Shown here piece after piece: positions 3,561 through 22,383 of a stretch of 32,000 bases of DNA (position 1 is the first letter of the stretch; each line of letters begins with the position of its first letter). Below the pieces are notes generated by a model. The model saw nothing but the letters and a program-made list of their open reading frames with translations, did not search any database and was not told where the DNA came from. A program made the position numbers and the translations under genes. Source of the DNA: a bacterium (GTDB lineage: Bacteria > Zixibacteria > MSB-5A5 > GN15 > FEB-12); the NCBI GenBank assembly GCA_020444475.1, contig JAHLKV010000005.1, positions 299,080 to 331,079 of the forward strand. Direction: 5' to 3'.

Positions 3561-6500
3561 ATGACGGACAACCAAGTACTCCCTCGCCATCGCCCCATCA
3601 TCCGGCTCTTCGTCAGTTCGACGTTTACTGACTTCAAGCATGAGCGCGATGTTCTTCAGCGCGAAGTCTTCCTGAAGCTGGAACGACACTGCGCAAAACG
3701 GCAGTTTCAGTTTCATGCGGTCGATCTGCGCTGGGGTGTTCCTACCGAGGCCAATAAAGACCACCGCACCATGCGCATCTGTTTTGAGGAACTCCGTCGG
3801 TCGCAGGAGATCTCGCCTCAACCTAATTTCTTGATCCTGATGGGTAACCGCTACGGCTGGCAACCCCTGCCCGAAGAGATCTCTGAGGACGAGTTCAACC
3901 AACTCCATCGGGTAGCCTTGCCGGATCGGGAGAGAACGATACTTGGAGAGTGGTACAATCGGGACGACAACGCCCTCCCCCCTGTCTACATCCTTCAATC
4001 CCGCAAGATCAAGCGTAATGACGGCCGGGACTACACCGATGACGAGGTGTGGAAGGGAATCCAAAGTACACTATGGGATATTATCAATCGCGCCTATCCG
4101 GATAACGGACTCGCCGAGCGTTTCGCCCATCACGTGGCACTCGACCAGCCGCTGCCGTCAGTCGTGCGCTTCCAGGCGTCCGCCACCGAGCAGGAAATCT
4201 GGCGCGGTGCCCTCGGAGCGCCAAACACCAAAGAACATGTGCTGGCCTTTATCCGTGAGATTGAGAACCTGGCCGACTTTCCGCAAGCCGACCAGATCGG
4301 CCAGTTTGTCGATGTCGAAAAGCATGAGGTCAACGCGGTTTCGCAGACTGCCCTGAATGATCTCAAGACCGAAGTCATCAAGAGGCTTGGAGACGGCAAC
4401 ATAATCACGAGCGATCCGGTGCGACTGCTGTTGGCGACAGACAGGGATGGCAGACCATCGGCTGACGTTTCCACCGAGCACCTGCCGGAGATGTGCACCC
4501 GCATCTATACCGCTCTGGAGAGCATCATCGACCGGCAGATGAATGAATACTGGGACACCGAAGGTACCGATGTGGCTCCCTCGCGATTACTCGAGCTGGA
4601 ACGCAACGAGCACCGGCTTTTTGGCCGGGAGCGGGCGCCGATTGAGTCCTTTGTCGGGCGGCAGCGGCCTCTTGAGACTATCGGCGACTATATCAACAAC
4701 CAAACTCAGGGGCTGCTGGTGATTCATGGAGCCTCCGGCTGCGGCAAGACGGCGCTATTGGCCCGCGCCGCACAGGAGGTTGCCCCGGAGCGGCATCCGA
4801 TTGTTCGGTTCATTGGTGTGACACCTCACACGTCCGATATCCGCTCATTGCTCAGCAGTCTATGCCAGGAACTGCGGGAGCGCCATCCTATCGACAGCCC
4901 GCTACCCACAGAGTACCAGCCGCTGGCGCAGGAGCTGTTGCAGCATTTAAACGCCGCTACGGCCGAAGAGCCGGTGATCCTATTCTTAGATGCCCTGGAC
5001 CAGCTGGCCGACTCCGATGACGGCCGCTCCCTGCACTGGCTGCCGACCGATCTCTTGCCTGAACATGCGAAAGTGATCGTCTCTTGTCTCTCCGAGCGCG
5101 CCCCCGAGGATCCGGCCGGACGGCCGTATGCCGCACTCAGGGAGCGCGTACTCTCGGACAAGAACTTCATTGATCTTGACGCGCTGGCTCCCGAGGAAGC
5201 CCGGGAACTTCTTTTTGATCGTTGGCTTCCGCAGGCGGGACGACGGCTCGATGCCGAGCAGTCCGAAACTGTCGCCAGGCAGATGGAAAAGCAAAGCTGT
5301 CGGGCGCCTCTCTATTTGAAGATTCTTTTCGAAGAGGCCCGCCTGTGGCGCTCATCTGAACCTGTGCCAGAACTGGGAGACGATGTCCCGGCACTGCTTG
5401 GTGATTTGCTTGATCGTCTCGGCGATTCTTCCAACCACGGGATAACGGTAGAACGCGCGCTCGGCTATATCGCGTCGGCGCGTCGGGGCCTGGCGGAATT
5501 GGAGATTCTGGAGGTCCTTTATCGCGATCCGGAATACAGGTCATTCCTCGACCGAGTCACAGAAAAGACCGGTCATACCCTGCCGGACATTCCGCCTCGG
5601 ATACCGATTGCCATCTGGGCACGACTTCGTTCTGATCTGGCGCCGTATCTGTCCGAGCAGGCCGCGCCCGGCGCCACCGTGCTGAACTTCTACCACCGCC
5701 AGATGTCTGAAACGGTGCGGGGAAGGTTTCTCAAAGGTGAGAAGAGATGCCGGCATTTTCACACGTCGTTAAGTGAGTATTTCGATAGCAGGAATCTGGA
5801 TTCGCGCAAAGTTGATGAACTCCCCTGGCAGCTGGCTGATGGGACAGCCTGGCAGAGGCTGTATGAGCTGCTGTCCGATGCGGACTTTCTTAGGGCTATA
5901 TGGATTTATAGTGGTTATGATGTCAAAACTTATTGGGCACGCATTGAAGAGTCCTCGAACCTGACACAGCTCAACGGCTATAGAGATGCCATAGAGTGTC
6001 CAGAATCAGAGCCCGACAAGAAATTCCTCGGGACGATAGCACTGCTGCTTTTCGACACGGGTCATCTTGACGAATCGTTCGAACTCGCACAGCACCTAAT
6101 AGAATACCATCGGCAGGCTTATGACGCTCGCAGATTCTTGGCATGCCTTACTCTGCAATCGAACATACTTCAGTTGCGCGGACGGTTCATAGAGGCCCTC
6201 CAGTCGCTACAGGAGGCAGAACAGTTTTCTCGGCAAATAGGAGACAAGACAGCCATAATGATCAGCATAGGCAACCAAGCCCCGATCTATTTGTCGCAGG
6301 GCAATCTTGACTGCGCCATGGAGAAGAGCCAACAGCAAGAACTTATTAGCCGGGAACTTGGTAGCATGAGCGGACTTCAGGCCAGTTTGGGAAACCAAGG
6401 GATGGTCCTGTATCGTCGTCGCGACTTTGACGCTGCTATGGCGAAGTTCAAGAACCAGACATCGATCTGCCGAGAATCGGGTAACATGACCGGGCTCTCA

Positions 6501-7508
6501 ACTAGCCTCAACAATCAGGCTTTGGTCCACATGGCTCAGGGAAATCGGGATGTGGCGCTCAGACTGCATGAAGAAGCAGCGCGCATCTGCCTTGCACTAG
6601 GTGACAAGGATGGTCTGCAGGCGAGTCTGGGGAACCAAGCCGAGATTCACGGAGCACGAGGGGATCCCGACAAGGCGATATCACTGTTGTCCCACCAAGA
6701 GTTGCTATGTCGGGAACTAGGAAACAAGGGCGGCTTACAGGTCAGCCTTGCGAACCAAGCGAGTCTACACTATAACCGCAACAACCTTGAGAAGGCGATG
6801 TCCGTACTAAAGGAGCAGGAACAGATCTGCAGTGAACTTGGAAGCAAAAAGGACCTTCAGGCTTGTATTGGCAGACAGGCTGCTATAGCCTCGAAGCAAG
6901 GTAACCCTGATCGCTCATTGATGTTACTCATGGAAGAGGAGCAGCTTTGCCGTACACTTAATGATAGACACAACCTACAGTCCAGCTTAGGCAATCAAGT
7001 CTTGATGCTGTACGAGATAGGAGATTTCTGCGGCGCCATGACGAGATTAAAGGAGCAAGAAACACTGTGCCGCGAACTGGGGGAACAGAAAGCACTGCGA
7101 GATAACCTTGCCAGGCAGGCCGGAGTTCACTATGCGCTTGGTGATCTCAATAGCGCTATGGATGTGCTTGAAGAAGATGAGCAACTGTGTGTTGAGCTAC
7201 AGGACATGGAAGGACTCCAAGAGAGTCTTGGACATCAGGCAAAGATTCTCCATGAATGGGGAGAACTTGATACGGCGATGATGGCATATGGGGCGCAAGA
7301 GAGTATTTGCCGTAGGTTGGAGAAGTTAGATAGCTTGGCCAGATCCTTGAAACGTCAATCTGAGATACTGTGTGAAACTACGCAGTTCCATAAGGCTTCG
7401 AGGAAGGCGAGGGAAGCCTTCGAATTGGCCTCACGACACGGTTTTTCTGATCTTCGCTTGGAGATCGAGGCTGTTCTTAAAGAGATACGACAACAGATAG
7501 ACGAATGA
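3561..7508 (+). CDS. STAND NTPase: DUF4062-type N-terminal domain + P-loop NACHT-like module + 40-aa TPR-like repeat array
   Basis: N-terminus: IRLFVSSTFTDFKHERDVL. Walker A GASGCGKT at 4728-4751. Walker B ILFLDALDQ near 4977-5003. Ten in-register 40-aa repeats plus a cap follow. ATG3561 is preferred; the track start at 3411 is a TTG that only adds non-domain residues. Confidence 0.9.
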   Translation: MTDNQVLPRHRPIIRLFVSSTFTDFKHERDVLQREVFLKLERHCAKRQFQFHAVDLRWGVPTEANKDHRTMRICFEELRRSQEISPQPNFLILMGNRYGWQPLPEEISEDEFNQLHRVALPDRERTILGEWYNRDDNALPPVYILQSRKIKRNDGRDYTDDEVWKGIQSTLWDIINRAYPDNGLAERFAHHVALDQPLPSVVRFQASATEQEIWRGALGAPNTKEHVLAFIREIENLADFPQADQIGQFVDVEKHEVNAVSQTALNDLKTEVIKRLGDGNIITSDPVRLLLATDRDGRPSADVSTEHLPEMCTRIYTALESIIDRQMNEYWDTEGTDVAPSRLLELERNEHRLFGRERAPIESFVGRQRPLETIGDYINNQTQGLLVIHGASGCGKTALLARAAQEVAPERHPIVRFIGVTPHTSDIRSLLSSLCQELRERHPIDSPLPTEYQPLAQELLQHLNAATAEEPVILFLDALDQLADSDDGRSLHWLPTDLLPEHAKVIVSCLSERAPEDPAGRPYAALRERVLSDKNFIDLDALAPEEARELLFDRWLPQAGRRLDAEQSETVARQMEKQSCRAPLYLKILFEEARLWRSSEPVPELGDDVPALLGDLLDRLGDSSNHGITVERALGYIASARRGLAELEILEVLYRDPEYRSFLDRVTEKTGHTLPDIPPRIPIAIWARLRSDLAPYLSEQAAPGATVLNFYHRQMSETVRGRFLKGEKRCRHFHTSLSEYFDSRNLDSRKVDELPWQLADGTAWQRLYELLSDADFLRAIWIYSGYDVKTYWARIEESSNLTQLNGYRDAIECPESEPDKKFLGTIALLLFDTGHLDESFELAQHLIEYHRQAYDARRFLACLTLQSNILQLRGRFIEALQSLQEAEQFSRQIGDKTAIMISIGNQAPIYLSQGNLDCAMEKSQQQELISRELGSMSGLQASLGNQGMVLYRRRDFDAAMAKFKNQTSICRESGNMTGLSTSLNNQALVHMAQGNRDVALRLHEEAARICLALGDKDGLQASLGNQAEIHGARGDPDKAISLLSHQELLCRELGNKGGLQVSLANQASLHYNRNNLEKAMSVLKEQEQICSELGSKKDLQACIGRQAAIASKQGNPDRSLMLLMEEEQLCRTLNDRHNLQSSLGNQVLMLYEIGDFCGAMTRLKEQETLCRELGEQKALRDNLARQAGVHYALGDLNSAMDVLEEDEQLCVELQDMEGLQESLGHQAKILHEWGELDTAMMAYGAQESICRRLEKLDSLARSLKRQSEILCETTQFHKASRKAREAFELASRHGFSDLRLEIEAVLKEIRQQIDE
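6135..7334 (+). repeat. 10 tandem in-frame 120-bp (40-aa) coding repeats
   Basis: Units follow the pattern LQxSLGNQAxxxxxxGxxxxAMxxxxxQExICRELGxxxG and stay exactly in register. A divergent terminal cap occupies 7335-7505. Confidence 0.85.
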
Positions 7509-7551: not shown

Positions 7552-7848
7552 ATGGAGCATTGTAGCCAAGCAAATGATCTTTTTAGTTCTCGCAATAATT
7601 ACGGGGCGATGGCGCCTCTGAAAGAACAAGAGAGGATCTGCCGCCAGCTGGGGAATGTGAAGGGCGTGGCAATATCGCTTGCCAATCAGTCCATCATCCT
7701 GGCCAAAGCGGGTCGGGTACAGGAAGGGTTGTCAAAGATAGAAGAAGCTCATCAGATGGCAGTCAAGTATGGTTACGCGGCTGTCGCGGCCCAAATCGAG
7801 CCAATGCTCTACGCCATCCGCCAGGCCGCGGAGGGGAGCAAACAGTGA
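7552..7848 (+). CDS. 98-aa stand-alone repeat/cap protein, paralogous to the C-terminus of the upstream STAND protein
   Basis: YGAMAPLKEQERICRQLGNVKGVAISLANQSIILAKAG.. follows the same 40-aa repeat grammar. The tail AAQIEPMLYAIRQAAE mirrors LRLEIEAVLKEIRQQIDE. AGGA lies 7 nt before ATG7552. Confidence 0.6.
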   Translation: MEHCSQANDLFSSRNNYGAMAPLKEQERICRQLGNVKGVAISLANQSIILAKAGRVQEGLSKIEEAHQMAVKYGYAAVAAQIEPMLYAIRQAAEGSKQ

Positions 7849-7999: not shown

Positions 8000-10900
8000 A
8001 TGGCAATCTATCAGAATAAAAACGCTAACCAGGTAGTCGTGGCTGGCGACATCTGTCTCGACATTCTGGCCGTCCCCAGACCGCCCCGCAAGCCGACCGA
8101 CAAGGTCGTCGATAACTGGCGTCTCACCGGCGAGATGCGCACGCACCACATGCTCGGAGGGGCCTGCCTGCTCGCGGACTTTGTGGAGTGCGCCATACAA
8201 ACGGCCAGGGATGAGGCTGAAGCCAAGGCTAAGGCCGAAGCTGAGGCTGCAGATAAGGCTGAGACCAAAGAGAAGGAAAAGGGAAAAGAAAGGGAAAAAG
8301 AAAAGGCTGTAATCATCACCGGCCCGGTGAGCAAACCGGTCATCGGATATCCGGACGATTTGGCTGACGTCGGGGGAGCCCAAGATCCGCTATCGAGCGA
8401 CCGTCTGGCCAGGCTGAACCGCAATGAAGTGGTCCATTCCATGCTGGAACTGTGCGAGGAGCCTGACGAAAAGGACAAAAAGAAGAAGATCTGGCGGGTG
8501 AGCCAGGCGCACGGCTTCTCCGGTCCGGACAACGGCAACCCCGTGCTTCGGCCCTGGATCGAGCACGACAACCCGGCGGCCGAACTTGTGATCCTCGACG
8601 ATACCGGCAATTCGTTCCGGAAGGACGAAAGCATGTGGCCGCGGGCGCTATCCACCCCCGGCAGCAAGCCGCTCGTTATCTATAAGCTGCATCGTCCTCT
8701 GCCTGGCTGCTGTGGACCCGCCGATGAGGTAATCGAGAACAAGCTCTGGGATCTGGTTGTGAGAGACCATCACGACCGCTGTGTCGTGGTTATCGACGTC
8801 AACGACCTGCGTGACCAGGGGGCGGTAATCAGCCGCGGACTCTCCTGGGAGAAGACCGCACTTGAGCTGGTCTGGCATCTACGTGGCGATGTTCGGTTCG
8901 CCGCGCTTCGGAATTGCCGCTATCTGATCGTGCGTTTCGGCTTGGACGGGGCGCTACTCTATCAGTATGACGGCAAGAATCCGCTGCCCGACATACAGCT
9001 CATCTATGACCCGAAGGAATCGGAGGACGGGTATCGCGGCAAACGCAAAGCCGGGATGGTGGGGACAGGCAGCGCTTTCACCGCCTGGCTGGCGGTCCAG
9101 TTCAACTCTCGGGTGAAGATGTTGAGTGGGATTTCGGGCGACGAATTGAACAAGAAGAAAACCGGGGCCTTGCTCTGGGCCGTCAAGGAAGGTCTCGCCG
9201 CATCGCGGACCGCCTTTGATGCCGGCTTTGGGGAGGTGTCGGAAGAAGATCCCAAGTACCCCGAACCGGCGCTCGCCGAATTGAAGAAGGCGGCAGGCGG
9301 ATTCAGGAGCATAGCCATTCCCCTGTTCAGGGACGCCTTCGATGCCGATCCGAAAAAGTGGACCGTGCTGGACGCCCTGTTCGCTCCCGGCAGCAGGCTG
9401 GAAGATACCGCGGAGCGGGCCCTCAGAGAGGCCGAAGTCACGGATCTGGACGCGGTTCCGCTCGGAGTCTTCAAAGACCTGCGTACGTACGATCGCTTCG
9501 AGATCGAAGGTTATCGTTCGATTTTCACCATCATGCATGAGTACATTCACAACCCCGGTCCGGAACGACCGCTGTCGATGGCCGTGTTTGGGCCTCCCGG
9601 GTCGGGCAAGTCTTTTGGCATCAAGCAGGTTGCAGAGTTGGTCAGAGGCGACGCCAAGCTGGATGTGCTGACGTTCAATCTCTCCCAGTTCACGGATACA
9701 GAGGAACTTGCCGCCGCGTTTCACCTCGTCCGCGACAGCTCGGTGCGAGGACGCATTCCGCTTGTGTTCTTTGATGAATTCGACACAGGAATGTCAGGTG
9801 AAAAGCTCTTCTGGTTGAAACACTTCCTGGCGCCGATGCAGGACGGCCTGTTCATGGACCGTGGCGCCGCTCACCCGATCGGCAAAGCGATCTTCGTGTT
9901 TGCAGGCGGGATCTATTCGAGCTTTGAGAAGTTCAATATCCAGCCGGAGAAGCCGGCTCAGCCTGGAAAAACGCAGGATCAGCCCCGGGTCGATGAGGCG
10001 GTCAAAGACACAGACCAGAGTCAGACTTCCGTGCAAACTGATGCCGCTGAGCCTCTCATCTATGGGGACTTCAAGGATGCCAAAGGCCCGGACTTTGTCA
10101 GTCGCCTCCGTGCGCTTCTGGACATCACAGGCATTGAACATGTGGGGTTGCCGACGGCCAGTGCACTGTTGCGGAGGGCATCGATTCTGCGCTTCCAACT
10201 GAAGAACAAAGCCAAAGGTGCGTTTGATGTTGACGGGGGTCTCCAGATAGACCCGAGCCTGGCGCGGGCGTTGCTGCAGGTGCCGAGATATCATCACGGT
10301 GTACGCTCGATGGAAGCCATCCTCGACATGAGTCGGATCGGCAGCTGTCGCCACCTCACGCCGTCCTGCCTGCCGCCGCAGGAGCAGATGGACCTTCATG
10401 TCGCATCAGAGGAGTTCTCCAATCTCCTCCGTGCGCCGCTGACATTTGGCAAGACGGACCTCGATATTATCGCCCGAGCTATTCATGAGGACTATCTTGC
10501 ACAACGAAAAAGCGACGGCACCTACGATGCGGCGGAGCCTACCCATAAGCGGTGGGAGGAATTCAATGAACTACTGGAGAAGGACAAGGAGACCATTGAC
10601 TCCAACCGCGAACAGGCGCGCATGATCCCCATCCGCCTGCGATCGATCGGCGCTTATGTGCGCAAGTCGGCCGCTGGCAGGCCGACCGAAGACGTTCCCC
10701 CACTTGCTGAGAAACACATTGAGTCTCTTGCGAAGCAAGAGCATGACCGGTGGATGGCGGAGAAGTTCCGGAAAGGCTGGATCTATGGCAAGCCACGCGA
10801 CAACGACCGTCGCATCCATCCGTGCCTGTTGCCGTGGGATCACGAGGACTTTCCCGAGTTCGAAAAGGATAAGGATCGGCGGACGATTCGCATGATACCG

Positions 10901-11155
10901 TCGTTTCTTGATGCCGCCGGCTGGGAGATCATCCCCCCGGATGAATCGGAGATTGGCAATCCGTCAGCAAAGGCAAAAACGACCAGGGCCGCAGCGGGGG
11001 AAAAGAGGCGCACGGCCGAAAAAACCGCTCGCAAGACCGTGCGGAAGTCAGCGCGAAAAGCAGTGCGCAAGACCTTGCGAAAGACTGGCGCCAAGCCCAC
11101 ACGCCCTCGCCCCAAAAAAGAGGCTTCCAAGGCGAAAAACAAGAGAAGGCCGTGA
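8000..11155 (+). CDS. Multidomain protein: divergent ribokinase/PfkB-like N-domain + AAA+ ATPase + two RyR-type repeats + Lys/Arg-rich tail
   Basis: VVVAGDICLD, LGGACLLA and MVGTGSAFTAWLA are PfkB-signature-like. Walker A GPPGSGKS at 9591-9614. Walker B FFDEFD at 9767-9784. RyR-like segments: IHEDYLAQRK.. and EHDRWMAEKFRKGWIYGKPRDNDRRIHPCLLPWD..EKDKDR (about 10465-10935). Tail: KTARKTVRKSARKAVRKTLRKTGAKPTRPRPKK. Confidence 0.85.
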   Translation: MAIYQNKNANQVVVAGDICLDILAVPRPPRKPTDKVVDNWRLTGEMRTHHMLGGACLLADFVECAIQTARDEAEAKAKAEAEAADKAETKEKEKGKEREKEKAVIITGPVSKPVIGYPDDLADVGGAQDPLSSDRLARLNRNEVVHSMLELCEEPDEKDKKKKIWRVSQAHGFSGPDNGNPVLRPWIEHDNPAAELVILDDTGNSFRKDESMWPRALSTPGSKPLVIYKLHRPLPGCCGPADEVIENKLWDLVVRDHHDRCVVVIDVNDLRDQGAVISRGLSWEKTALELVWHLRGDVRFAALRNCRYLIVRFGLDGALLYQYDGKNPLPDIQLIYDPKESEDGYRGKRKAGMVGTGSAFTAWLAVQFNSRVKMLSGISGDELNKKKTGALLWAVKEGLAASRTAFDAGFGEVSEEDPKYPEPALAELKKAAGGFRSIAIPLFRDAFDADPKKWTVLDALFAPGSRLEDTAERALREAEVTDLDAVPLGVFKDLRTYDRFEIEGYRSIFTIMHEYIHNPGPERPLSMAVFGPPGSGKSFGIKQVAELVRGDAKLDVLTFNLSQFTDTEELAAAFHLVRDSSVRGRIPLVFFDEFDTGMSGEKLFWLKHFLAPMQDGLFMDRGAAHPIGKAIFVFAGGIYSSFEKFNIQPEKPAQPGKTQDQPRVDEAVKDTDQSQTSVQTDAAEPLIYGDFKDAKGPDFVSRLRALLDITGIEHVGLPTASALLRRASILRFQLKNKAKGAFDVDGGLQIDPSLARALLQVPRYHHGVRSMEAILDMSRIGSCRHLTPSCLPPQEQMDLHVASEEFSNLLRAPLTFGKTDLDIIARAIHEDYLAQRKSDGTYDAAEPTHKRWEEFNELLEKDKETIDSNREQARMIPIRLRSIGAYVRKSAAGRPTEDVPPLAEKHIESLAKQEHDRWMAEKFRKGWIYGKPRDNDRRIHPCLLPWDHEDFPEFEKDKDRRTIRMIPSFLDAAGWEIIPPDESEIGNPSAKAKTTRAAAGEKRRTAEKTARKTVRKSARKAVRKTLRKTGAKPTRPRPKKEASKAKNKRRP
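8267..8306 (+). repeat. 40-nt uninterrupted homopurine tract inside a low-complexity coding insert
   Basis: aaagagaaggaaaagggaaaagaaagggaaaaagaaaagg contains only A and G. It encodes part of EAEAKAKAEAEAADKAETKEKEKGKEREKEKA (8211-8310). Confidence 0.9.
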
Positions 11156-11205: not shown

Positions 11206-14200
11206 ATGCCATATGATATCTTTGTCAGTTACTCACGGCGCGATAATAATCGTGGACAGGTATCTCAGCTCATCGGGCAGATTCGTGATGACTGCGAACA
11301 ACTGACCGGTGATGAACTCCGGTGTTTCTTCGATCTGGAAGAAATCCGGAGTATGGATGACTGGCGCCATCGCATTCTCGGCGGACTGCGCGAGTCAAAG
11401 ATCTTCCTGCTGATTCTGTCACCCGCCTATCTTGCCAGCGACTATTGTCAGTGGGAGATTGTCGAGTTCCTCAAATACGAGCACTCACGCGCCGTCCAGG
11501 GACAGGGGGTCGCCCAGATCTATTTCGTTGAAATTCCCGATCTCGATTCCCCGGACTCCCAGCAGGAAGCGACAGAGTGGCTGGCCGGCGTTCGAAGACG
11601 CAACCACATTGACCTGAGACCGTGGTACAATGACGGTGCCGCTGCCCTGGCACAGGATGACGTGCGCGAACGACTGGCCGATCTCGAACGCTCGATCTCA
11701 CACCGACTGACACGGTTAAAGCGTATCGTCAACGCTCCCGGCAACCTGCCGGCCCACAATCCCCGGTTTGTCGGTCGGGAAACGGAAATGGAACGGCTCC
11801 ATAGGGCGGCCGGGCTGGGCCAGTACGGTATCCTCACGGCTGTCCAGGGAGTCGGTGGTCTCGGTAAGACCGCGCTCGCCATACAATACGCCTACGCCTA
11901 CGCCGACTTCTATCCGGGCGGGAGATGGATGATCGGATGTGCCGGGCGGGACGATCTGGCCGGCGCTATTCGGAGCCTTGATGTCGACCTGGGGGTTCAG
12001 TTCACCGACGACGAGAAAACCGATGATACCCGGGCTGCCAGGCGCATCCTGGCCAACATGCGTGAGCGGGCAGAGAAGGGAGCCGCCGAGCGGGCCGCAG
12101 AACCAAACCCGCCCTCGGCGAGAGCGCTGATAATCCTGGACAATGTCGACGCCCCCGACATGCTCCGGCCGCCGCAGATCGATCTGGTCTCCGGTCAGAA
12201 CTGGCTCCACGTGATTGCGACCACCCGGCTTGATCCCGGTGAGACCGGCTGGGACACCGATCGCCACACCCACGTCCCGGTGGATGAGCTTCCCGATGAT
12301 GACGCCCTTCGCCTGATCGAAAGCCATCAGCCTGATGGCCGCTTTCAATCGGAGACGGAGCGCGACGCCGCCCGGGAGATTGTCGGTCTGCTGGGAGGTT
12401 TCACCCTGGCGGTCGAAGTGGTGGCGGTGCATCTCGGTGAGCGGCACGGCCGGCTGAGATGCGCGGATCTGCTGACGAGGCTTCGTCGCGACGGGGTCGA
12501 TGCAATCGCCAAAGAAACGAGGCGTTCGGTCAATCATGTTGAACGGCTGATGTCGGTCACGCTGGCGCCGACTTTGGAGCTGCTCAGTGAGCCTGAACTC
12601 GAGGTGCTCACGACCGCATCGCTCTGCCCGCCTGACAGTGTGGTGCTGCCGTGGTTGCGGGCGGTGGTGGCCGAACGGTATCCGGAGTTGGGACGCGATG
12701 CTGAACCGGGGTATGATGATCCCTGGTCAAGCCTGGTCAACCATCTGATAGGCCTGCGCCTGCTGCAGGTGATTGACTGGGCCGATGACACCATCACGCC
12801 TCGCATCTGCCGCATGCACCGAGTGGTGCTGTCGGCTGTCCGGCAGCGCGCGCAGGAGGAGATGACTGAAAGGAGAGACAGCCTTCTGCGGGTGGCGCTG
12901 GACCGTGCTGGATTCCTGAAGAGAGAGTGGCTTGAGTGGACCAACCGCTGGGAAATTGAACCACTGGCTCAGTTTGCTGAGCACCTGTCGGAAGTGGATT
13001 CTGAGGATGCTTGTAGAATTAACAGACTCGCTGCCTTGTGCTTAGATAAGATTGGTCTTCATCGTGCTGCTGTGCCTATACTGCGGATGGTTTTAGAGTC
13101 GCGCGAGCAGTCACTCGGTTCGGATCATCCAGATACCCTGAGTATCGTGAATGATTTGGCCGCACAACTTGAAAAAAGCGGAGACTATACCTCGGCCGAA
13201 CCTCTTCTCCGACGGGCGCTGGCCGCACGGGAGAGGTTGTTCGGCCCCTATCATCGAGACACACTTACCACTGTCAATAATCTGGCGTTTTTGCTACAAA
13301 TCAAGTGCGATTTCCCCTCGGCCGAGTTACTGTACCGCCGGGCTCTGGCAGGGCGCGAGCAGTCTCTCGGTATTGATGATCCCGACACCTTGACCAGCCT
13401 TAACAATCTTGGTACACTCTTAGTGTCCAAAGGTGACCTTATCTCAGCCGAGCCTCTCCTCTGTCAGGCACTGAATGGACGTGAAAGGACACTTGGTCCT
13501 GAGCATCCAGAAACGCTGGTCGTTGCGAACAATCTGGCCGCCTTGTTCCGGCGCAGAGGTGATCTCGAATCGGCCGAAGCTCTGTATCGGCGTGCGTTTG
13601 AAGGAAGTGAGCGAGCACTCGGTTCTGATCACCCGATGACCCTGTCAAAGGCAAGCAATTTGGCCCTCTTGCTGGAGCGCAAAGGAGACCACAAGGCGGC
13701 CGCGTCCTTGCGTCAGCTAGCGCTGAAGGCAAGCGAGCGAGTACTCGGACCTGATCACCCAGATACTCTCACTTGCGTTAATTGCTTAGCTGATTCGCTG
13801 AAGAACGAGGGAGACGTCGAGTCGGCTCTGACTCTTTCTTGGCGTGTACTCAGAGGGCGTGAGCGAGTGTTAGGACCTGATCATCCTCACACCCTCGACA
13901 GTGCCAGCGCCGTCGCCTTGTTGCTCCAGAGAAAGGGCAGCTACGATCAATCTGAGGACCTAAACCGGCGGGCGTTGGAAGGGCGTGAGCGAGTGCTCGG
14001 TCGTGATCATCCGGATACTCTTACCAGCGTCAACAATCTTGCCTATGTGCTTCAATGCAAAAGGCATTACGACGCGGCCGAGCTACTCTTAAGACGGGGA
14101 TTGGCGGACAGTGAGCGGGTGCTGGGTCCTGATCACGCACATACCCTCACATTCGTTCACAATCTGGCCCATATGTTGCAAAGCAAGGGCGTATATGGGC

Positions 14201-15003
14201 TGGCGGAGTCCTTATATCGGCGCGCGGCGGAAGGACGCGGAAGGGTGCTGGGCGTTGATCATCCGGACACGCTCACCAGCGTCCACAATCTTGCCCATGT
14301 GCTTCAATATAGGGGCGAGCTTGATTCAGCCGAGCCGCTGTACCGGCGGGCGCTGGAAGGAAACGAGCGGGTGCTGGGTCCTGATCATCCGGATACCCAC
14401 ACCGTTGCCCAGAACTTTGCCGGTCTATTGGAGAAGATGGGAAGACACGCAGAGTCAACAGAACTCCGTCGAAAGCGAATCGCGATCCTGGCCGCGAAGC
14501 CTGAGACGCCTCCACTTACGCTTCGCCATCTTGCACTCGACAGTTACAAGGTGGAGGACTATGAGACGGCCGAGGGATTGCTCGTTCGTGTGCTCAATGC
14601 CGATTTCGAAGTACCCGGAACCCGATGCCATCTCGCCCGCGTGTGTCTGATAAACAACAACGATACAGAAGCGGCTCTGCATGCAGAAGAAGCCTGGCGG
14701 CGTGTGGCTGAGGCACCACCGTACATAGTGGGGCGTATTCTCTGGTTCAAGACGCTCTTCGCCTTGCTAAACAGCGCCCCCTCGGATCCGTTCGTAGGCA
14801 GGCTCAAGATGGTCATGCAATCCGACGATGCTCACTTGGGCTGGGACATGGCTCGAGTGCTGGAGCACCTCAAGCCCCGTCTGCCTGCTGACCAGCACGC
14901 CTTTCTCGCTGCCCTCATAGCAGCGTTGAGCGATCAGGCGAATGGTGGCGCGCTCGACCAATTCGAGTGGTGGCGCAACGCAATCCCACAACCTATCACA
15001 TGA
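11206..15003 (+). CDS. TIR - NB-ARC/STAND ATPase - TPR (TPR_10/12, kinesin-light-chain-like) protein
   Basis: N-terminus YDIFVSYSRRD, with SDYCQWEIVEF carrying the TIR Glu at 11455-11457. Walker A GVGGLGKT at 11848-11871. Walker B LIILDNVD at 12127-12150. Eleven LGPDHPDTLTSVNNLA-type 42-aa repeats follow. Confidence 0.95.
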   Translation: MPYDIFVSYSRRDNNRGQVSQLIGQIRDDCEQLTGDELRCFFDLEEIRSMDDWRHRILGGLRESKIFLLILSPAYLASDYCQWEIVEFLKYEHSRAVQGQGVAQIYFVEIPDLDSPDSQQEATEWLAGVRRRNHIDLRPWYNDGAAALAQDDVRERLADLERSISHRLTRLKRIVNAPGNLPAHNPRFVGRETEMERLHRAAGLGQYGILTAVQGVGGLGKTALAIQYAYAYADFYPGGRWMIGCAGRDDLAGAIRSLDVDLGVQFTDDEKTDDTRAARRILANMRERAEKGAAERAAEPNPPSARALIILDNVDAPDMLRPPQIDLVSGQNWLHVIATTRLDPGETGWDTDRHTHVPVDELPDDDALRLIESHQPDGRFQSETERDAAREIVGLLGGFTLAVEVVAVHLGERHGRLRCADLLTRLRRDGVDAIAKETRRSVNHVERLMSVTLAPTLELLSEPELEVLTTASLCPPDSVVLPWLRAVVAERYPELGRDAEPGYDDPWSSLVNHLIGLRLLQVIDWADDTITPRICRMHRVVLSAVRQRAQEEMTERRDSLLRVALDRAGFLKREWLEWTNRWEIEPLAQFAEHLSEVDSEDACRINRLAALCLDKIGLHRAAVPILRMVLESREQSLGSDHPDTLSIVNDLAAQLEKSGDYTSAEPLLRRALAARERLFGPYHRDTLTTVNNLAFLLQIKCDFPSAELLYRRALAGREQSLGIDDPDTLTSLNNLGTLLVSKGDLISAEPLLCQALNGRERTLGPEHPETLVVANNLAALFRRRGDLESAEALYRRAFEGSERALGSDHPMTLSKASNLALLLERKGDHKAAASLRQLALKASERVLGPDHPDTLTCVNCLADSLKNEGDVESALTLSWRVLRGRERVLGPDHPHTLDSASAVALLLQRKGSYDQSEDLNRRALEGRERVLGRDHPDTLTSVNNLAYVLQCKRHYDAAELLLRRGLADSERVLGPDHAHTLTFVHNLAHMLQSKGVYGLAESLYRRAAEGRGRVLGVDHPDTLTSVHNLAHVLQYRGELDSAEPLYRRALEGNERVLGPDHPDTHTVAQNFAGLLEKMGRHAESTELRRKRIAILAAKPETPPLTLRHLALDSYKVEDYETAEGLLVRVLNADFEVPGTRCHLARVCLINNNDTEAALHAEEAWRRVAEAPPYIVGRILWFKTLFALLNSAPSDPFVGRLKMVMQSDDAHLGWDMARVLEHLKPRLPADQHAFLAALIAALSDQANGGALDQFEWWRNAIPQPIT
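13114..14499 (+). repeat. 11 tandem in-frame 126-bp (42-aa) coding repeats, including a younger 252-bp two-unit duplication
   Basis: Units are in register from L637. Units 8 (13996) and 10 (14248) match at roughly 80-85% over their first ~60 nt by eye. Units 9 and 11 both open with gtgctgggtcctgatca. Confidence 0.85.
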
Positions 15004-15735: not shown

Positions 15736-16059
15736 TCACTCCCCTCGGCGCCAGCGGCGCCAATCGGCGGCATGCTTCTTGATCCAGTCCATTGCCGCCG
15801 AGTCACCAACATCCATACCTGCCTTCTCGGACTCGATCCACTTATGCTTCTCTATCTCGCGCCATTGTTCGGTCAGTTCCTTGCGTAGCCGTTCATGCCG
15901 CCACTTCGAAGCGTGATGCACCAGCCAGTGGGCGATGGCGTAGGCCATCCCCACGTCGCGACCGGCCTCCTTTGACAGAAAGTACTTGTGTGTCTCGATT
16001 GCCTTCCGTTCCTCGCGGGTGAGTTCATCTTCCGAGTATTGATCGATCCTGTCACACAT
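15736..16059 (-). CDS. Small (107-aa) helical protein with an internal tandem duplication
   Basis: It has two copies of one motif: ETHKYFLSKEAGRDVGMAYAIAHWLVHHASKWR and EKHKWIESEKAGMDVGDSAAMDWIKKHAADWR. ATG16059 overlaps the upstream stop by 8 nt (ATGTGTGA), so it is preferred over the track's 16140 start. Confidence 0.65.
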   Translation of the reverse strand: MCDRIDQYSEDELTREERKAIETHKYFLSKEAGRDVGMAYAIAHWLVHHASKWRHERLRKELTEQWREIEKHKWIESEKAGMDVGDSAAMDWIKKHAADWRRWRRGE

Positions 16060-18016
16060 GTTGTTCGACCTCCGCAGATAATGCCCGTTGCTGATTCCGC
16101 CATCGCCAAAACTCCATGTGATGCAGGCGGGTGCGGGCATAGTGCAGGTGTGATGCGAGTTCGTCCGGGGCGACCACTACAAACTGACGAAATGTCTTCG
16201 ACGCCGCATCGGTGTCCCCAAGCGCGTCTTCGGCCAGTGCCTTCCAGTACAACGCAGCCGGGTGGCGGGCATCGATCGTGGCAGCTCGCTCGTAGCATTC
16301 GCGAGCTTGGGTACAGTGCGGATGCTCCGGGTCAAGGCCGGCCCCCCTCAACCCGGCCCCCTTCTGTCGCGCCCCCTTTAACAGGGCCTCAGCCTTGAGC
16401 ACCAGAGCATCCACGTGTCGATCGTTCTTTTCCAACACTCGGTTACAGACGGCAACAGCTTGCTTGAGCGATCTGGAGTCACCCATCGCGATTAGCGCCA
16501 GCGCCTTAGCGCACAAGGGTTCCGGAATGGCCGGGCTCGATACGGCTTCCGTTTTGAACTTCTCAAGCGCGGTCCTTAAATCGCCGTCGTGATAAGCCTG
16601 CAAACCTGTGACGTAGTCGTCTGTTGTTCGCTGAGCCTCCGATAACTGGCAACAGCTCAGCAATTCACTCAGATGACGCCGACGCGCCGCCACCAGATCG
16701 GCCTCGAATCTGGTTCCTTTGAAAAGGCCACTGTCATGATTCGCCAGTATCTCCTGCAGGCGTCGCTGTGCGTATTCGCGCTGCGGCTCACACGATGGCA
16801 GGGAGTCCATGACCAACTTCGCGTACGGTCTTGCGGCTTCAAACCATCGGCGCATTTCATCTTCGATGAGCGCTCTGAAGTACACCAGCGCGGGATTGTG
16901 CGGGTTGTTTACCGACACCTTCTCGAGGCAACGGACGGCATCCTCATCGCGCCCGAGCATCAGCAACGCCTCGGCTTTGGTCTGAGCAGCTGTGTAGTAT
17001 TCTGGCTTCTGCAGCAGAATAGCATCGCAAATGTCCACCGCTTCGGCGTGGCGGCCGAGCTGATTTAGTGCGTGAGCCCGGTTGTTCCCAGCGGCGAGGT
17101 CACGAGGATTATCGGTTACAGCCCGTGTGAAGCAGATCAGAGCTTTGCTCCACTCTCCGCGGCGACCGTGCCGGGCACCCTTTGACGCTTCGGGACTGAT
17201 TGTCCCGCCTCCAGACACGAAATGCTGTGTGTAGAGCCGATCAAGTTCTTCATTTCGCCTCGCAAGCAGGAAAGCAGTCTCGGCGCTCCGGCCGTCGCTA
17301 TCCCGAAGTTTGTAGGCGGCCCGCGTCTGCAGTTGGGCATCTCCATCCCACAAAGGTGGGCGTTCGACCCCAATTCGGTAAGCGAACAGTGCACGGTCGG
17401 TCATCCCGTGCGAACTGTGGCGATTGCCAAGATTCAGCCAGGGACGTACACATCTGCTGTCGGTCTGGATAGCCTTCAGATAGGTCTTGATCGCACCGGG
17501 GGTATCGCCCAACGATGCCTGCGAGGCGCCTTTGCCATTAAGCGCCTGAGCCAGCGAGGGATCGAGCAAAACGGCTTGATCGGCCAGAAAGATTGCTTTT
17601 CGGAAAAACTCCCTTGTGCCGGTGCTCCAGTGGGCTATGGTTTCGTACAACAGCAGGAGAGCACGATCTTTGTTGCACAGGGGGACGGAGGAATCCTCAT
17701 GGAACTCAGATGCGATGCGGGAAAGTTTCTTCGCCCATTTGTCATTTCTCTTGAAATCCACTCTGACGATGCGGGCGATACGCTGCGAAGGGTCAGAACT
17801 GTCGTTGAGAAGCCGCAGAACCGCGAAGACCCCGTCCCCCTTGTCAAAGTAATGCATTCGTTTCAAGACAGCCCCATCCATGGCTCTGACCGATTCACTG
17901 TCCAATGAACAATTCTGGTCGACGATATGGGTGGCCCGAAAGCCCACGTCCTGTCTAAGCAGGTAGAGAAAGAGACGATCCTCGGATGTAAACTGAATAT
18001 CAGCCAACTGATTCAT
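16052..18016 (-). CDS. TPR-repeat protein with an unassigned ~150-aa N-terminal domain
   Basis: Classical 34-aa TPR grammar, for example GDTPGAIKTYLKAIQTDSRCVRPWLNLGN and GRHAEAVDICDAILLQKPEYYTA. GAGGA lies 5 nt before ATG18016. Confidence 0.85.
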   Translation of the reverse strand: MNQLADIQFTSEDRLFLYLLRQDVGFRATHIVDQNCSLDSESVRAMDGAVLKRMHYFDKGDGVFAVLRLLNDSSDPSQRIARIVRVDFKRNDKWAKKLSRIASEFHEDSSVPLCNKDRALLLLYETIAHWSTGTREFFRKAIFLADQAVLLDPSLAQALNGKGASQASLGDTPGAIKTYLKAIQTDSRCVRPWLNLGNRHSSHGMTDRALFAYRIGVERPPLWDGDAQLQTRAAYKLRDSDGRSAETAFLLARRNEELDRLYTQHFVSGGGTISPEASKGARHGRRGEWSKALICFTRAVTDNPRDLAAGNNRAHALNQLGRHAEAVDICDAILLQKPEYYTAAQTKAEALLMLGRDEDAVRCLEKVSVNNPHNPALVYFRALIEDEMRRWFEAARPYAKLVMDSLPSCEPQREYAQRRLQEILANHDSGLFKGTRFEADLVAARRRHLSELLSCCQLSEAQRTTDDYVTGLQAYHDGDLRTALEKFKTEAVSSPAIPEPLCAKALALIAMGDSRSLKQAVAVCNRVLEKNDRHVDALVLKAEALLKGARQKGAGLRGAGLDPEHPHCTQARECYERAATIDARHPAALYWKALAEDALGDTDAASKTFRQFVVVAPDELASHLHYARTRLHHMEFWRWRNQQRALSAEVEQHV

Positions 18017-18026
18017 ATGCTATCCT

Positions 18027-19178
18027 CTAATCGATTCCATCTGAAACGGTGGGTCGCAGACGGTTGACCGCTTCAATAATACTCCTGGCTTGCGACTCGA
18101 GCGCGGCCGCGGCGTCGCAGAGCGCATCGTCACCTTTCAGGCTTGGAACGACCATGTCAAGTCTGTACAGGTTTGCGAACAGCAGCTTATAGATTGGCAC
18201 CTTCTGAGGTGGACATGGATCGCACCGAAGTTCCAGCTCAAGGTCAGACTTTGACTCATGGGCAAGACCAAACCAGCCGTCGAATGCGACCTCTGTCTCG
18301 AGAAACTCACGGAATGCCCTATTCAACCGAACGAAAAGCCGCGTCGCTATCTGGGGCAGGTTGGTGAGTTCCTGTCCGTCTCTCTTCGGCAAACTGTCGA
18401 GTAGCGCAGCAACCGCCTGCTGAGGGTAAACATCCTCAAAGAACCGTTTCTCGACGGGGCTTGCATGCACTCTGAGCGTACACAGATCAGCGCTCAGACA
18501 GAGGTACAAGATCTCCACTGCGCTCATGAACTGCGGCAGTTTGAAGTGATGGGCTGCGACGACCGCCGGACGTTGATCTTCATGCCACATGGCCGAGAGG
18601 CAGTAATGTCCTATGTGTTGCAGAAGGTCATCGGCGCAGGATTCTGGATTCTCAACGCCAGCACACTGCGTCGTCATGACTTCTGTACGGAATTGTGACA
18701 TGCGGAGGTAGTACGTTTCGTGGCCCATGTACATGTATCTGGCAAATCGGCTATCCGCAAACGGAAAGCCGGGACTTAGATAGATGTCCTCCACAACCAG
18801 GCTGTACTCCGACCAGTAATCGTGGGCTATCCGGCTCAGGCTGTAAGCCGGCAATCCGCGCGACGTTCTTCGAACGTCCAGGAAGTAGTGGCCGCTACCC
18901 ACCATCGATACCAGGCTTCGGAGTCTGTCCGGGCTAGTGAGAGGTGCTTCCTCCGGTTTGTGTTTAAGGGGTATGGCAACCGGCTCTCGCAGGAAGGCCG
19001 TGATCTCCTCCAGATCGTCGAATTCCCCACCGTTATTCTCAAGTTCCCTCCGGAAATCGTCGTACTTTCTCAAGCGGTCCACTAGTGGTCCCAAGACCTG
19101 CTTATCGTCCCGAAGCCCCGATTCTCTGCTATCGCAGTCGTACGAGGCACGTGAGCTTGTGTAGTAGTTGGACGTCAT
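18027..19178 (-). CDS. Hypothetical 383-aa protein (no recognisable motif, no obvious TM segment)
   Basis: Long ORF running from ATG19178 to TAG18027. It is packed 10 nt from the downstream gene and 29 nt from the upstream gene in the same operon. Confidence 0.75.
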   Translation of the reverse strand: MTSNYYTSSRASYDCDSRESGLRDDKQVLGPLVDRLRKYDDFRRELENNGGEFDDLEEITAFLREPVAIPLKHKPEEAPLTSPDRLRSLVSMVGSGHYFLDVRRTSRGLPAYSLSRIAHDYWSEYSLVVEDIYLSPGFPFADSRFARYMYMGHETYYLRMSQFRTEVMTTQCAGVENPESCADDLLQHIGHYCLSAMWHEDQRPAVVAAHHFKLPQFMSAVEILYLCLSADLCTLRVHASPVEKRFFEDVYPQQAVAALLDSLPKRDGQELTNLPQIATRLFVRLNRAFREFLETEVAFDGWFGLAHESKSDLELELRCDPCPPQKVPIYKLLFANLYRLDMVVPSLKGDDALCDAAAALESQARSIIEAVNRLRPTVSDGID

Positions 19179-19207
19179 ATGATCTTACTTCCCAGTATCT
19201 CTTGCCG

Positions 19208-21346: not shown

Positions 21347-21353
21347 ATGGTTC

Positions 21354-22364
21354 TCAGAATAGATTAGCCGTGAGTGTCTTGTCCTCTTCCGGATTGCGCA
21401 TGCCGAACACCTCCTGCATGACCGATGGCAGGAGCTCCTTGTCCTTGGTATCCGCATTCCCAAGAATGGTGGCTTGCGCAACTTGCTGATGGGTCATGCC
21501 CGGCATGCTGTGCGCCTTTCGCAGGAAGGACAGATACCCGTGGATTGTCGGCGGCACCAGAGACTGGAGATTTCCTTCGCTCCGATGGCGACGAATGAGT
21601 CGGCCCAGCAGCACTATCTGGTTCACCAGTTCGGATTCAACGCCGATCTGCAGCGACTGTTCCGCCAGGCTCTGCAGTACCACCGATTCCAGCTCACTTG
21701 GCAGGTAGTCGATCGTAAGGTTGGAGCCGAACCGACGGCGCAGAGCATCATCAAGCGTCACCAATGTGTGGGTGGAGTCGTGTGCTGCCTGGTAATTGCT
21801 GTCCGCGATCCACGCTATTCCGTGACCGCTAATCCGTCTTCCGTCGGGCAGAACAATGTCGTCGTGCGTCATGAGGTCCAGTAGTCCTCCCTGGACGCTG
21901 GCAGCGTGTACCCGGCCCATTTCCCTCAGCCATACTACATTGTATGAGTCCTCGGGCGCGTCGGCCGCCTCGGTCAAGGACTGGACGAGTTGACTTGGTT
22001 CGTCAAATGTCGTGCCGTTCCTGATCGCGCGCCGCTGATACAACTCTCCGGGGGTTTCGTACACAGCCATCTCGACGGGGAAGAGCCGCACGGGCTTGAC
22101 CCGGTGACCGAGTTCCGAGCAGATTGCTTCGAAGTTTGCCGGAACCGTGCAGACGGCCTCGATCAGGCTGCTCTTTGCGGACCCGGTTGGACCGCTGACG
22201 TGTATGAACTCGTGAGCAACAATATCGTCCACCAGAGATTGGAGGTGCCACTTCAGCATATACAGCGGATGGCCATGCGTCGTGGGCAGAAGCTGCACGA
22301 GATCGGTTGGTCCCGCCTTGCGATACTCATCCTCGTTATCGACTCGAAAAACCTGGGCTGTCAT
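21354..22364 (-). CDS. AAA_5 (MoxR/CbbQ/NorQ-like) ATPase
   Basis: Walker A GPTGSAKS at 22170-22193. The Walker B position reads VVWLRE (21921-21938). LLDLMTHDDIVLPDGRRISGHGIAWIADSNY fits the AAA_5 core. AAGGGGA precedes ATG22364. Confidence 0.9.
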   Translation of the reverse strand: MTAQVFRVDNEDEYRKAGPTDLVQLLPTTHGHPLYMLKWHLQSLVDDIVAHEFIHVSGPTGSAKSSLIEAVCTVPANFEAICSELGHRVKPVRLFPVEMAVYETPGELYQRRAIRNGTTFDEPSQLVQSLTEAADAPEDSYNVVWLREMGRVHAASVQGGLLDLMTHDDIVLPDGRRISGHGIAWIADSNYQAAHDSTHTLVTLDDALRRRFGSNLTIDYLPSELESVVLQSLAEQSLQIGVESELVNQIVLLGRLIRRHRSEGNLQSLVPPTIHGYLSFLRKAHSMPGMTHQQVAQATILGNADTKDKELLPSVMQEVFGMRNPEEDKTLTANLF

Positions 22365-22383
22365 TCTGCAATCCCCTTCTCAG

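Follow-up and report, generated by a model that had tools for sequence, protein, structure and literature searches.

What is the task of a bacterial protein that joins a ribokinase-like domain, an AAA+ ATPase and a ryanodine receptor-type (RyR) domain in one chain, and whose gene is found among genes of STAND proteins with TIR or TIR-like DUF4062 domains? This question is raised by the open reading frame (ORF) at positions 8000-11155 on the + strand of a 32,000-nucleotide (nt) stretch of Zixibacteria DNA (GenBank assembly GCA_020444475.1, contig JAHLKV010000005.1, positions 299,080 to 331,079 of the forward strand), which is termed the window throughout. The ORF is real, and its product of 1051 amino acids (aa) belongs to a large family of cellular proteins, as yet uncharacterised, which are all built to one plan of three modules. 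The best reading of its role, to which we give a little less than an even chance, is that a product derived from NAD is sensed by the RyR domain, with the AAA+ module as the switch and the ribokinase-like domain as the output; the protein would then not be a sugar kinase but would respond to a signal, as an accessory or effector of immune sensors of the NADase type. Every module comes from a known superfamily and the logic resembles that of known nucleotide-signal effectors; in the literature found, no description was met of the module combination, of the altered ribokinase cleft or of a cellular RyR tie to NADase-STAND sensors. The literature search, which did not cover the 2015 Nucleic Acids Research paper on nucleotide-centric systems, returned no paper on a bacterial PfkB-like/AAA+/RyR protein and none on a RyR-domain defence effector, and an earlier note on this DNA, made by reading the letters, likewise knew of no described system with this combination.

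The ATG of the gene is preceded by AGGAAGGAA, a ribosome-binding-like site, the base composition is unremarkable and the NCBI record identical to its product is named 'AAA family ATPase [bacterium]'. Antisense ORFs within 8000-11155 (up to 256 aa) were rejected as shadows, the + strand gene being strongly conserved. The short motifs quoted in the earlier note are all located where it placed them: VVVAGDICLD at aa 12-21, GG at aa 53-54, GTGSAF at aa 355-360 (nt 9062-9079), GPPGSGKS at aa 531-538 and FFDEFD at aa 590-595. The three-part architecture is borne out by profiles, structural models and Foldseek, the full-length AlphaFold2 model having a predicted local distance difference test (pLDDT) of 85.3 and a predicted template modelling score (pTM) of 0.85. 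Conservation is counted below either in 80 genome members of the family or in 184 diverse representatives. The gene and its modules are the following:

8000-11155, + strand: whole gene, ribokinase-like / AAA+ / RyR (Repeat12); ORF, about 50 full-length homolog clusters, AlphaFold2 model
8027-9340, + strand: ribokinase-fold (PfkB-like) domain with beta-lid, about aa 10-447; AlphaFold2 model, Foldseek
9452-10399, + strand: AAA+ ATPase with lid, about aa 485-800, resembling the second nucleotide-binding domain (NBD2) of ClpB, without the GYVG pore loop; Pfam, Foldseek, MAFFT
10442-10684, + strand: RyR repeat 1 (aa 815-895), divergent, with H829-x-x-Y832, W852 and N869; hhalign against repeat 2
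10694-10954, + strand: RyR repeat 2 (aa 899-985), canonical, with H915-x-x-W918, H940 and D959; Pfam PF02026
10952-11152, + strand: Lys/Arg-rich C-terminal tail (aa 985-1051), 40% K+R, low pLDDT

The candidate sensor is the RyR domain. Repeat 2 is recognised by PF02026 both in the whole protein (aa 901-977; 54.9 bits with a cut-off of 27.4, E = 1e-14) and as an isolated segment (56.2 bits, E = 4e-15), and it matches RyR Repeat12 chains of the PDB at E = 2e-20. Isolated repeat 1 gives no RyR match in Pfam; in profile-to-profile hhalign it is matched to repeat 2 with a probability of 95.7% (E = 9e-9). With Foldseek the full-length model was aligned over about 196 columns to the 206-residue human RyR3 Repeat12 (template modelling (TM) score 0.55-0.67), and the RyR3 structures matched include ATP- and AMP-PCP-bound forms. 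Both of the RyR repeats announced in the earlier note were thereby recovered, repeat 2 by Pfam and repeat 1 by hhalign, and the model predicts that together they form a complete pseudo-symmetric Repeat12-like domain.

What such a domain can do was reported for RyDEP, a phage RyR-domain protein that binds 2'/3'cADPR, isomers of cyclic ADP-ribose (cADPR), and cleaves it to ADP-ribose (ADPR), and whose homologs act as high-affinity sponges (2026 preprint, PMC13232231). In RyDEP, H75 and D117 form a dyad, W78 is placed on the adenine and H100 on the phosphates, and these ligand residues are conserved across PF02026, human RyR3 Repeat12 included (PMC13232231). By spacing and by PDB alignment they correspond to H915, W918 (+3), H940 (+25) and D959 (+44) of the 1051-aa protein, and H-x-x-W/H/D residues at matching spacing are common to it, to RyDEP, to human RyR3 Repeat12 and to a Bacteroides thetaiotaomicron RyR-like protein, all of PF02026. 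H915 is kept in 77 of the 80 members, W918 in 72, H940 in 44 and D959 in 49. D959 is present in 36/36 members with a signalling-type neighbour versus 13/44 without one, and in the same partner-associated members D21 (34/36) and R207 (35/36) are kept, with 13-14/44 in the remaining ones. Repeat 1 has Tyr for Trp and Asn for Asp when compared with the RyDEP ligand residues. Small, phage-encoded and directed against host immunity, RyDEP pairs two single-repeat chains as a homodimer, whereas the large cellular AAA+ protein studied here has two unequal repeats in one chain, as its C-terminal module, and its ligand binding is putative. By analogy with RyDEP, the RyR/Repeat12 domain appears to be the better-evidenced ligand sensor than the PfkB-like domain (PMC13232231).

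The tail that follows, called histone-like in the earlier note, is indeed present, yet it is found in 1/80 members, the 1051-aa protein itself, and is not a family feature. The tail is lineage-specific and therefore no part of the family mechanism; it was ruled out as a family feature together with a Glu/Ala/Lys-rich insert of the N-terminal domain, both being unique among the 80 members. A Bacteroidetes member (L022:9992-13111) carries a 163-aa C-terminal extension with an apparent extra RyR-like repeat (IHEDY...SxxxREANYDNAR).

The candidate output is the N-terminal domain, the features of which are as follows:

8195-8314, + strand: Glu/Ala/Lys-rich low-complexity insert in helix alpha1 (aa 66-105), lineage-specific; the region has 45 aa here versus a family median of 5.5 aa
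8801-8812, + strand: N268-D269-L270-R271 at the presumed PfkB NxxE position, with Arg271 instead of the Mg-binding Glu; order of secondary structures compared with RbsK
9005-9061, + strand: insertion of about 16 aa with YDPxxxE ahead of the GxGS helix; hhalign gap of 16 residues versus RbsK
9062-9079, + strand: G355-T-G-S358-A-F, the GAGD counterpart, in which Ser358 pairs with the catalytic Asp255 of Escherichia coli ribokinase; hhalign, models

The AlphaFold2 model of aa 8-447, built on an alignment of 32 family sequences, has pLDDT 90.4 and pTM 0.92. When it was compared with the PDB by Foldseek, all 50 listed matches were PfkB-family kinases (E 5e-8 to 2.5e-4; TM 0.45-0.58, normalised to the target), pseudouridine kinase, ribokinase, ketohexokinase, tagatose-6-P kinase, HldA and nucleoside kinases included, and the full-length model gave the same result for this domain. 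Sequence profiles are silent, since there was no PF00294 match in Pfam at E <= 0.1, no NCBIfam kinase match and no PfkB chain at E <= 10 in a search of PDB sequences with the profile of the 32 family sequences; the sole PDB sequence match of that profile, an E2 enzyme at E about 1, was taken as chance. The ribokinase fold therefore rests on structure and not on sequence profiles, and at the structural level the models support it as real. Of the PfkB-like domain that the earlier note had proposed, the fold thus stood, and a significant sequence-profile match was not obtained.

How is the active site of this fold changed? In hhalign the global mode gave meaningless end-to-end alignments, and the local mode and MAFFT were used. 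When RbsK, YeiI, PsuK, FruK and PfkB, five kinases of the PfkB family from E. coli, were compared with the domain by local hhalign, an in-register match of 19.6% probability (P = 1.2e-3) was obtained, which pairs G-M-V-G-T-G-S358-A-F with D-T-I-A-A-G-D255-T-F of RbsK, and in both AlphaFold2 models GTGSAF lies at a helix N-terminus, as in PfkB. The Ser at the catalytic-Asp position, claimed from the motif in the earlier note, agrees with this weak pairing and with the helix position. Among the 184 representatives position 358 is S in 111, T in 22, A in 12, C in 9, N in 9 and D in 5, hence non-Asp in about 97% of members. Some members have G-x-x-D-A-F, which supports homology of the motif with GAGD, and the variability of position 358 implies that the canonical base is dispensable. 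As to the second catalytic motif, V-N268-D-L-R271 probably occupies the place of P-N187-E-T-E190 (NxxE) of RbsK, and R271 is conserved in 80/80 genome members and in 182/184 representatives; GGACLLA, which the earlier note had labelled as the NxxE/anion-hole motif, is the region of the N-terminal GG motif, where G53 is kept in 77/80 and G54 in 54/80 members, the strand-1-end Asp, D21, being kept in 47/80. Both canonical PfkB catalytic residues thus appear to be replaced, Asp by Ser358 and the NxxE Glu by Arg271.

The remainder of the pocket is far from degenerate. Glu342 of the YDPxxxE insertion is conserved in 80/80 genome members and 180/184 representatives, S282 and W283 in 183 representatives each, D201 in 179 and K229 in 176. 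The near-invariant charged cleft residues are D17, D200, D201, K229, D269, R271, E284 and E342, and the topology would put all the invariant charged residues in the canonical cleft, where the strands have their C-terminal ends, which points to strong selection on a cleft of changed chemistry. The N-terminal domain may be dead, or it may be an enzyme that uses E342, R271, K229 and the D200/D201 pair. The label of a ligand-binding pseudo-kinase holds as far as the canonical residues are gone, whereas the charged conserved cleft equally fits altered catalysis and the RyR domain is the likelier sensor. With PfkB/ribokinase kinases (PF00294; RbsK, HldA, LacC, pseudouridine kinase) the domain shares the alpha/beta fold with beta-lid, the strand-1-end Asp, the GG motif, the GxxG loop and G-x-G-x-A-F at a helix N-terminus. 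It differs from them in lacking profile similarity, in the mostly replaced Asp, in the invariant Arg at the place of the NxxE Glu, in the 16-aa insertion with Glu342 and in the fusion to AAA+ and RyR modules. In the loci surveyed, no metabolic (sugar or nucleoside) kinase operon was found around the family genes, nor homologs in such operons with an intact GAGD, which the earlier note would have counted against its proposal.

The switch between the two is sought in the AAA+ module, with the following features:

9590-9613, + strand: Walker A GPPGSGKS (aa 531-538); G531, G536, K537 and S538 in 80/80 members
9767-9784, + strand: Walker B FFDEFD (aa 590-595); D592, E593 and D595 in 80/80 members
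9962-10045, + strand: disordered non-conserved insert in the AAA+ module (aa 655-682); pLDDT below 50
10094-10111, + strand: arginine-finger segment, PDFVSRLR-type, aligned with ClpB PEFINR; R702 in 80/80 members
10304-10306, + strand: sensor-2 R769, in GVRSM, aligned with ClpB GARPL; 80/80 members

The module is matched by PF00004 (E = 8e-5), and in Foldseek the full-length model matches ClpA, ClpB and Skd3. In a MAFFT alignment with NBD2 of E. coli ClpB, GPTGVGKT of ClpB is paired with GPPGSGKS (Walker A), VILLDEVEKA with LVFFDEFDTG (Walker B), LLQVLDDGRLTD with FLAPMQDGLFMD in the segment after Walker B, PEFINR with PDFVSR (arginine finger) and GARPL with GVRSM (sensor 2). The sensor-1 Thr at position 638 is kept in 76/80 members and is Ile in the 1051-aa protein. 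A first reading by eye as 'classical AAA' was dropped in favour of a ClpB-NBD2-like module on the strength of this alignment and of a beta-hairpin before sensor 1 in the model. The intact motifs suggest an active ATPase. Opposite the ClpB pore loop VGAPPGYVGYEE the alignment has a gap of 12 residues, by which the GYVG segment is deleted, and threading of a polypeptide is therefore unlikely. The module thus has in common with Clp/Hsp100 NBD2 (ClpB, ClpA, Skd3) Walker A and B, the LLQVLDDGRLTD-like segment, the arginine finger and sensor 2, and departs from ClpB, ClpA and Skd3 in the missing GYVG pore loop, in the missing second nucleotide-binding domain and in the added disordered insert. What had been called canonical AAA+ is canonical in its aligned and conserved ATPase motifs, and not in being ClpB-NBD2-like without a pore loop.

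Where would a ligand of the RyR domain come from? The gene belongs to a co-directional array in which a DUF4062-STAND-TPR gene, a 98-aa ORF, ORF 8000-11155 and a TIR-NB-ARC-TPR gene follow each other:

3561-7508, + strand: upstream partner, DUF4062(NIR)-STAND-TPR, Avs-like, 1315 aa; Pfam DUF4062, AAA_16, NPHP3_N, NACHT, TPR
7552-7848, + strand: 98-aa ORF between the upstream partner and ORF 8000-11155; called as a gene
11206-15003, + strand: downstream partner, TIR-NB-ARC-TPR, 50 nt past the stop codon of ORF 8000-11155; Pfam TIR_2, NB-ARC, TPR_10/12

No convincing + strand terminator was found between the cassette genes. NADase activity has been published for TIR and for DUF4062 domains alike. 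DUF4062 is a TIR-like NADase that makes ADPR and is the N-terminal effector of Avs-type STAND proteins (10.64898/2026.05.01.722283, 10.64898/2026.09.04.749371). Neither these papers nor the one on RyDEP (PMC13232231) mention a RyR, AAA+ or ribokinase-like partner, and there is none in the systematic TIR-system survey or in the 2020 conflict-systems paper; the survey also holds no RyR/ribokinase-fold/AAA+ effector of this kind. The Glu at the catalytic position is kept in the TIR and DUF4062 domains of both partners, and the DUF4062 domain has a C-x-E-E motif. The 98-aa ORF has no significant Pfam match, and it could be a TPR-like remnant or the split C-terminus of the upstream protein, the likeness being one seen by eye. 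The TIR-NB-ARC-TPR protein is also matched by the NCBIfam model 'FxSxx-COOH system tetratricopeptide repeat protein' (391 bits, cut-off 300) and weakly by the TIR-like N-terminal model of FxsC; the FxSxx-COOH match is probably driven by the TPR_10/12 repeats.

ORFs were called and clustered in 82 distinct loci around family genes, and the earlier note's suggestion to survey such neighbourhoods for STAND or TIR partners led to both. The recurrent neighbours are DUF4062-STAND-TPR/WD40 and TIR-STAND proteins, 13 loci having a TIR protein no more than 520 nt away and 17 a DUF4062 protein no more than 900 nt away. In a within-locus test a TIR/DUF4062 gene was the immediate neighbour in excess of expectation (23/49 versus 10.7 expected, P = 8e-5; 20/73 loci). 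The cassette with DUF4062-STAND and TIR-NB-ARC-TPR is conserved across phyla in the subfamily of this protein, as seen in three metagenome-assembled genomes (MAGs; identity to the window proteins in brackets):

L073, Alphaproteobacteria MAG: DUF4062-STAND (31%), family gene (31%), TIR-NB-ARC-TPR (46%)
L040, Terriglobales MAG: family gene (36%), TIR-NB-ARC-TPR (50%) directly after it
L011, Planctomycetota MAG: family gene (38%), DUF4062-STAND (45%)

Another neighbour, tentatively called SLOG-like, has about 190 aa and carries the motifs GVTGHR, LAEGADR and GGTG; its matches to YpsA, YAcAr and DprA are weak and single-member, and it has no PDB match. It is encoded in 17 loci overall and within 25 nt downstream in seven of them (L055, L057, L059, L067, L069, L078, L082), where its start overlaps or nearly touches the stop codon of the family gene, and in L003:4089-5831 it is fused to transmembrane segments. 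RelA/SpoT-TPR-LSDAT(SLOG) proteins are found beside the family gene with RyR (L006:3465-6014) and with no Pfam RyR match (L071:12731-14797), and transmembrane-TrkA_N proteins with two RyR repeats in L080:3293-5086 and L032:15223-16971. Paralogs with TIR in place of the ribokinase-like domain on the AAA+(-RyR) chassis also adjoin the family gene: TIR-AAA+-RyR directly after it in an archaeal MAG (L017:12499-14481) and TIR-AAA+ directly before it in Desulfomonile (L014:2347-3906), and the TIR-AAA+-RyR architecture is found in further clusters (P0202, P0229, P0264, P0276). Since TIR replaces the PfkB-like domain on the same chassis in paralogs, the PfkB-like domain is in the effector slot.

The family as a whole is large. 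The first homolog search gave about 50 full-length clusters, a scan of one genome per species gave at least 413 relatives, and an exhaustive search with a profile of the N-terminal domain gave 1975 representative clusters (50% identity) at E <= 1e-3 and 1577 at E <= 1e-10, the domain being N-terminal in nearly all of the top 150 matches long enough to judge (about 850-950 aa). Relatives are found in cultured Clostridium, Desulfosporosinus and Pelotomaculum, in many Acidobacteriota, Verrucomicrobiota, Planctomycetota, Chloroflexota and Chlorobiaceae, and in archaeal MAGs. Their records are named 'Ryanodine receptor Ryr', 'RyR domain-containing protein', 'AAA family ATPase' or 'hypothetical protein', with no functional annotation. 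The sole fungus is Hortaea werneckii, whose cluster (P0278; 869 aa, 'Ryanodine receptor Ryr domain-containing protein', 35 member sequences) suggests transfer into a eukaryote. A phage origin was ruled out by the count of 1 relative in 2.9 million viral contigs, and the sole match in the phage collection covers the RyR repeat only. Three family members are on plasmids; on one of these (L090, Methylobacterium plasmid NZ_CP107533.1) the gene lies near that of a SIR2-family protein of more than 2000 aa and a transposase.

How could these parts act together? In the reading given at the outset, the neighbouring STAND sensors (DUF4062/NIR-STAND-TPR and TIR-NB-ARC-TPR) would fire and convert NAD+ to ADP-ribose or cyclic ADP-ribose isomers, and the Repeat12 domain would bind that NAD-derived product. 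The bound ligand would then act as a switch on how the AAA+ module assembles or runs its ATPase cycle, and the ribokinase-like domain, in the slot held by TIR in the paralogs, would deliver the output by binding or altering a ribose-containing metabolite. Such a scheme has two close relatives among described systems. The first is Thoeris (TIR plus a SLOG/Macro effector, e.g., ThsA), in which likewise a TIR gene adjoins a gene with a cADPR-type-binding domain, and SLOG-like proteins are found near the family genes as well. Unlike in Thoeris, the partners are large STAND proteins (NB-ARC/NACHT-TPR/WD40) and not ThsB-like ones, the putative sensor is RyR and the putative output is a ribokinase fold plus AAA+. 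The enriched, syntenic adjacency to TIR/DUF4062 genes and the cADPR binding known of RyR domains speak for a Thoeris-like pairing; the STAND-type partners, the lack of a partner in about half of the family and the missing PADLOC match speak against it. The second is the group of Avs- and NLR-like STAND NADases, the genes of which are adjacent and which follow the same logic of an N-terminal enzyme, a central oligomerising NTPase and a C-terminal sensor; unlike in those, the NTPase here is an AAA+ of HCLR type, and at the C-terminus there is a Repeat12 small-ligand domain in place of TPR or WD40.

Several points weigh against this scheme. TIR-STAND and DUF4062-STAND proteins are thought to be self-contained sensor-effectors that kill by NAD+ depletion, and with such self-contained sensors a downstream receptor is therefore not obviously needed. 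No PADLOC model matches the 1051-aa protein. About half of the sampled loci, mainly of Clostridia, have no conserved partner, and a defence role is therefore not universal; a conserved partner in Clostridia was ruled out, the neighbour clusters there being ABC transporters, methyl-accepting chemotaxis proteins, short-chain dehydrogenases/reductases, flavodoxin-like/HxlR proteins and histidine kinases. The correlation of D959 with partners is confounded by phylogeny. The mapping of R271 to NxxE is topological and the S358/D255 pairing has the low hhalign probability given above, so both should be taken as provisional, and the assignment of sensing and acting domain is one that sequence may not settle.

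Among the other explanations the one that survives best, which we nevertheless consider unlikely, is a guard that clears or recycles the signal. Like RyDEP, the Repeat12 domain would work as a glycosidase, by which stray 2'/3'cADPR is opened to ADPR, the ribokinase-like domain would bind or phosphorylate the ribose end, and the protein would restrain or reset the NADase sensors. The equivalents of the RyDEP dyad, H915 and D959, are kept, D959 in all 36 partner-associated members, and RyDEP is known to cooperate with a kinase-type enzyme, Adps, to rebuild NAD+ (PMC13232231). The ribokinase fold handles ribose, and on the substrate side the domain retains Asp21 and the GG motif. However, the non-cleaving, sponge-type homologs of RyDEP are highly conserved with it, and conserved residues are therefore no proof of catalysis. 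Moreover, the domain has lost the base of canonical kinases and the NxxE Glu, and a simple recycling enzyme needs no AAA+ module with fully intact ATPase motifs.

The model of the earlier note is an improbable one: a dead PfkB-like ligand sensor would control the AAA+ module, with the RyR repeats and the basic tail as output or targeting device, e.g., for nucleic-acid binding. It is consistent with the loss of the catalytic Asp and the NxxE Glu, with the retained substrate-side D21 and GG and with the tolerance of position 358 for S, T, A, C, N and D, as if catalysis were unneeded. Yet the basic tail is unique to the 1051-aa protein, RyR domains are demonstrated ligand binders, and in paralogs it is TIR, an enzymatic effector, that substitutes for the PfkB-like domain; with its many near-invariant acidic and basic residues the cleft looks closer to an active site than to a pocket for binding only. 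Finally, there is a small chance that the protein is a general nucleotide-responsive regulator of metabolism or stress, brought next to STAND NADases by hitch-hiking in islands, as the standalone genes among ordinary neighbours in many cultured Clostridium species, the missing PADLOC match and the low mobility (few relatives on plasmids and the single one among the viral contigs) might suggest, but even within loci TIR/DUF4062 genes are immediate neighbours more often than expected, partners that are orthologs with 31-50% identity persist across phyla, the start and stop codons of family genes run into those of STAND or SLOG-like genes or lie very close to them, and TIR is fused to the same AAA+-RyR chassis.

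The window holds further genes outside the cassette:

16052-24645, - strand: array encoding a TPR protein (654 aa), two proteins with no Pfam match (383 and 757 aa), an AAA_5 protein (336 aa) and an AAA_2/Clp-like protein (753 aa), which may be another conflict-type system
24920-26614, + strand: sigma-54 activator, overlapping the next gene by 4 nt
26611-28797, + strand: TIR-NPHP3_N/NACHT-HTH_TANC1
29084-29935, + strand: 283-aa protein consisting of a tandem pair of TIR_2 domains (Pfam E = 4e-38); its gene follows that of TIR-NACHT directly

The gene types of the sigma-54 activator and the TIR-NACHT protein also flank the family homolog of L003/L004, with TIR-NACHT divergent upstream and the sigma-54 activator 300 nt downstream.

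One may ask what the family would mean for the biology of its hosts. It is possible, although we regard it as doubtful, that RyR/Repeat12 domains are cellular receptors for the ADP-ribose-family molecules made by the TIR and DUF4062(NIR) NADases of NLR-like sensors, and that the family is a class of signal-gated AAA+ effectors with a re-purposed ribokinase-fold output. If this were true, RyR would be a third sensor type beside SLOG and Macro, and the neighbouring RelA/SpoT-SLOG-RyR and transmembrane-TrkA_N-RyR proteins would be sister effectors with the same sensor. Should the link hold, NAD+ depletion might not be the sole task of TIR-NB-ARC and DUF4062/NIR-STAND proteins, which may in addition feed a downstream receptor. 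Through the RyR domain a large unannotated family of about 2000 clusters gains a lead to NAD+-derived immune chemistry, and its ribokinase fold, with replaced catalytic residues and a strongly conserved cleft, is a place where new chemistry on ribose-containing metabolites may be sought.

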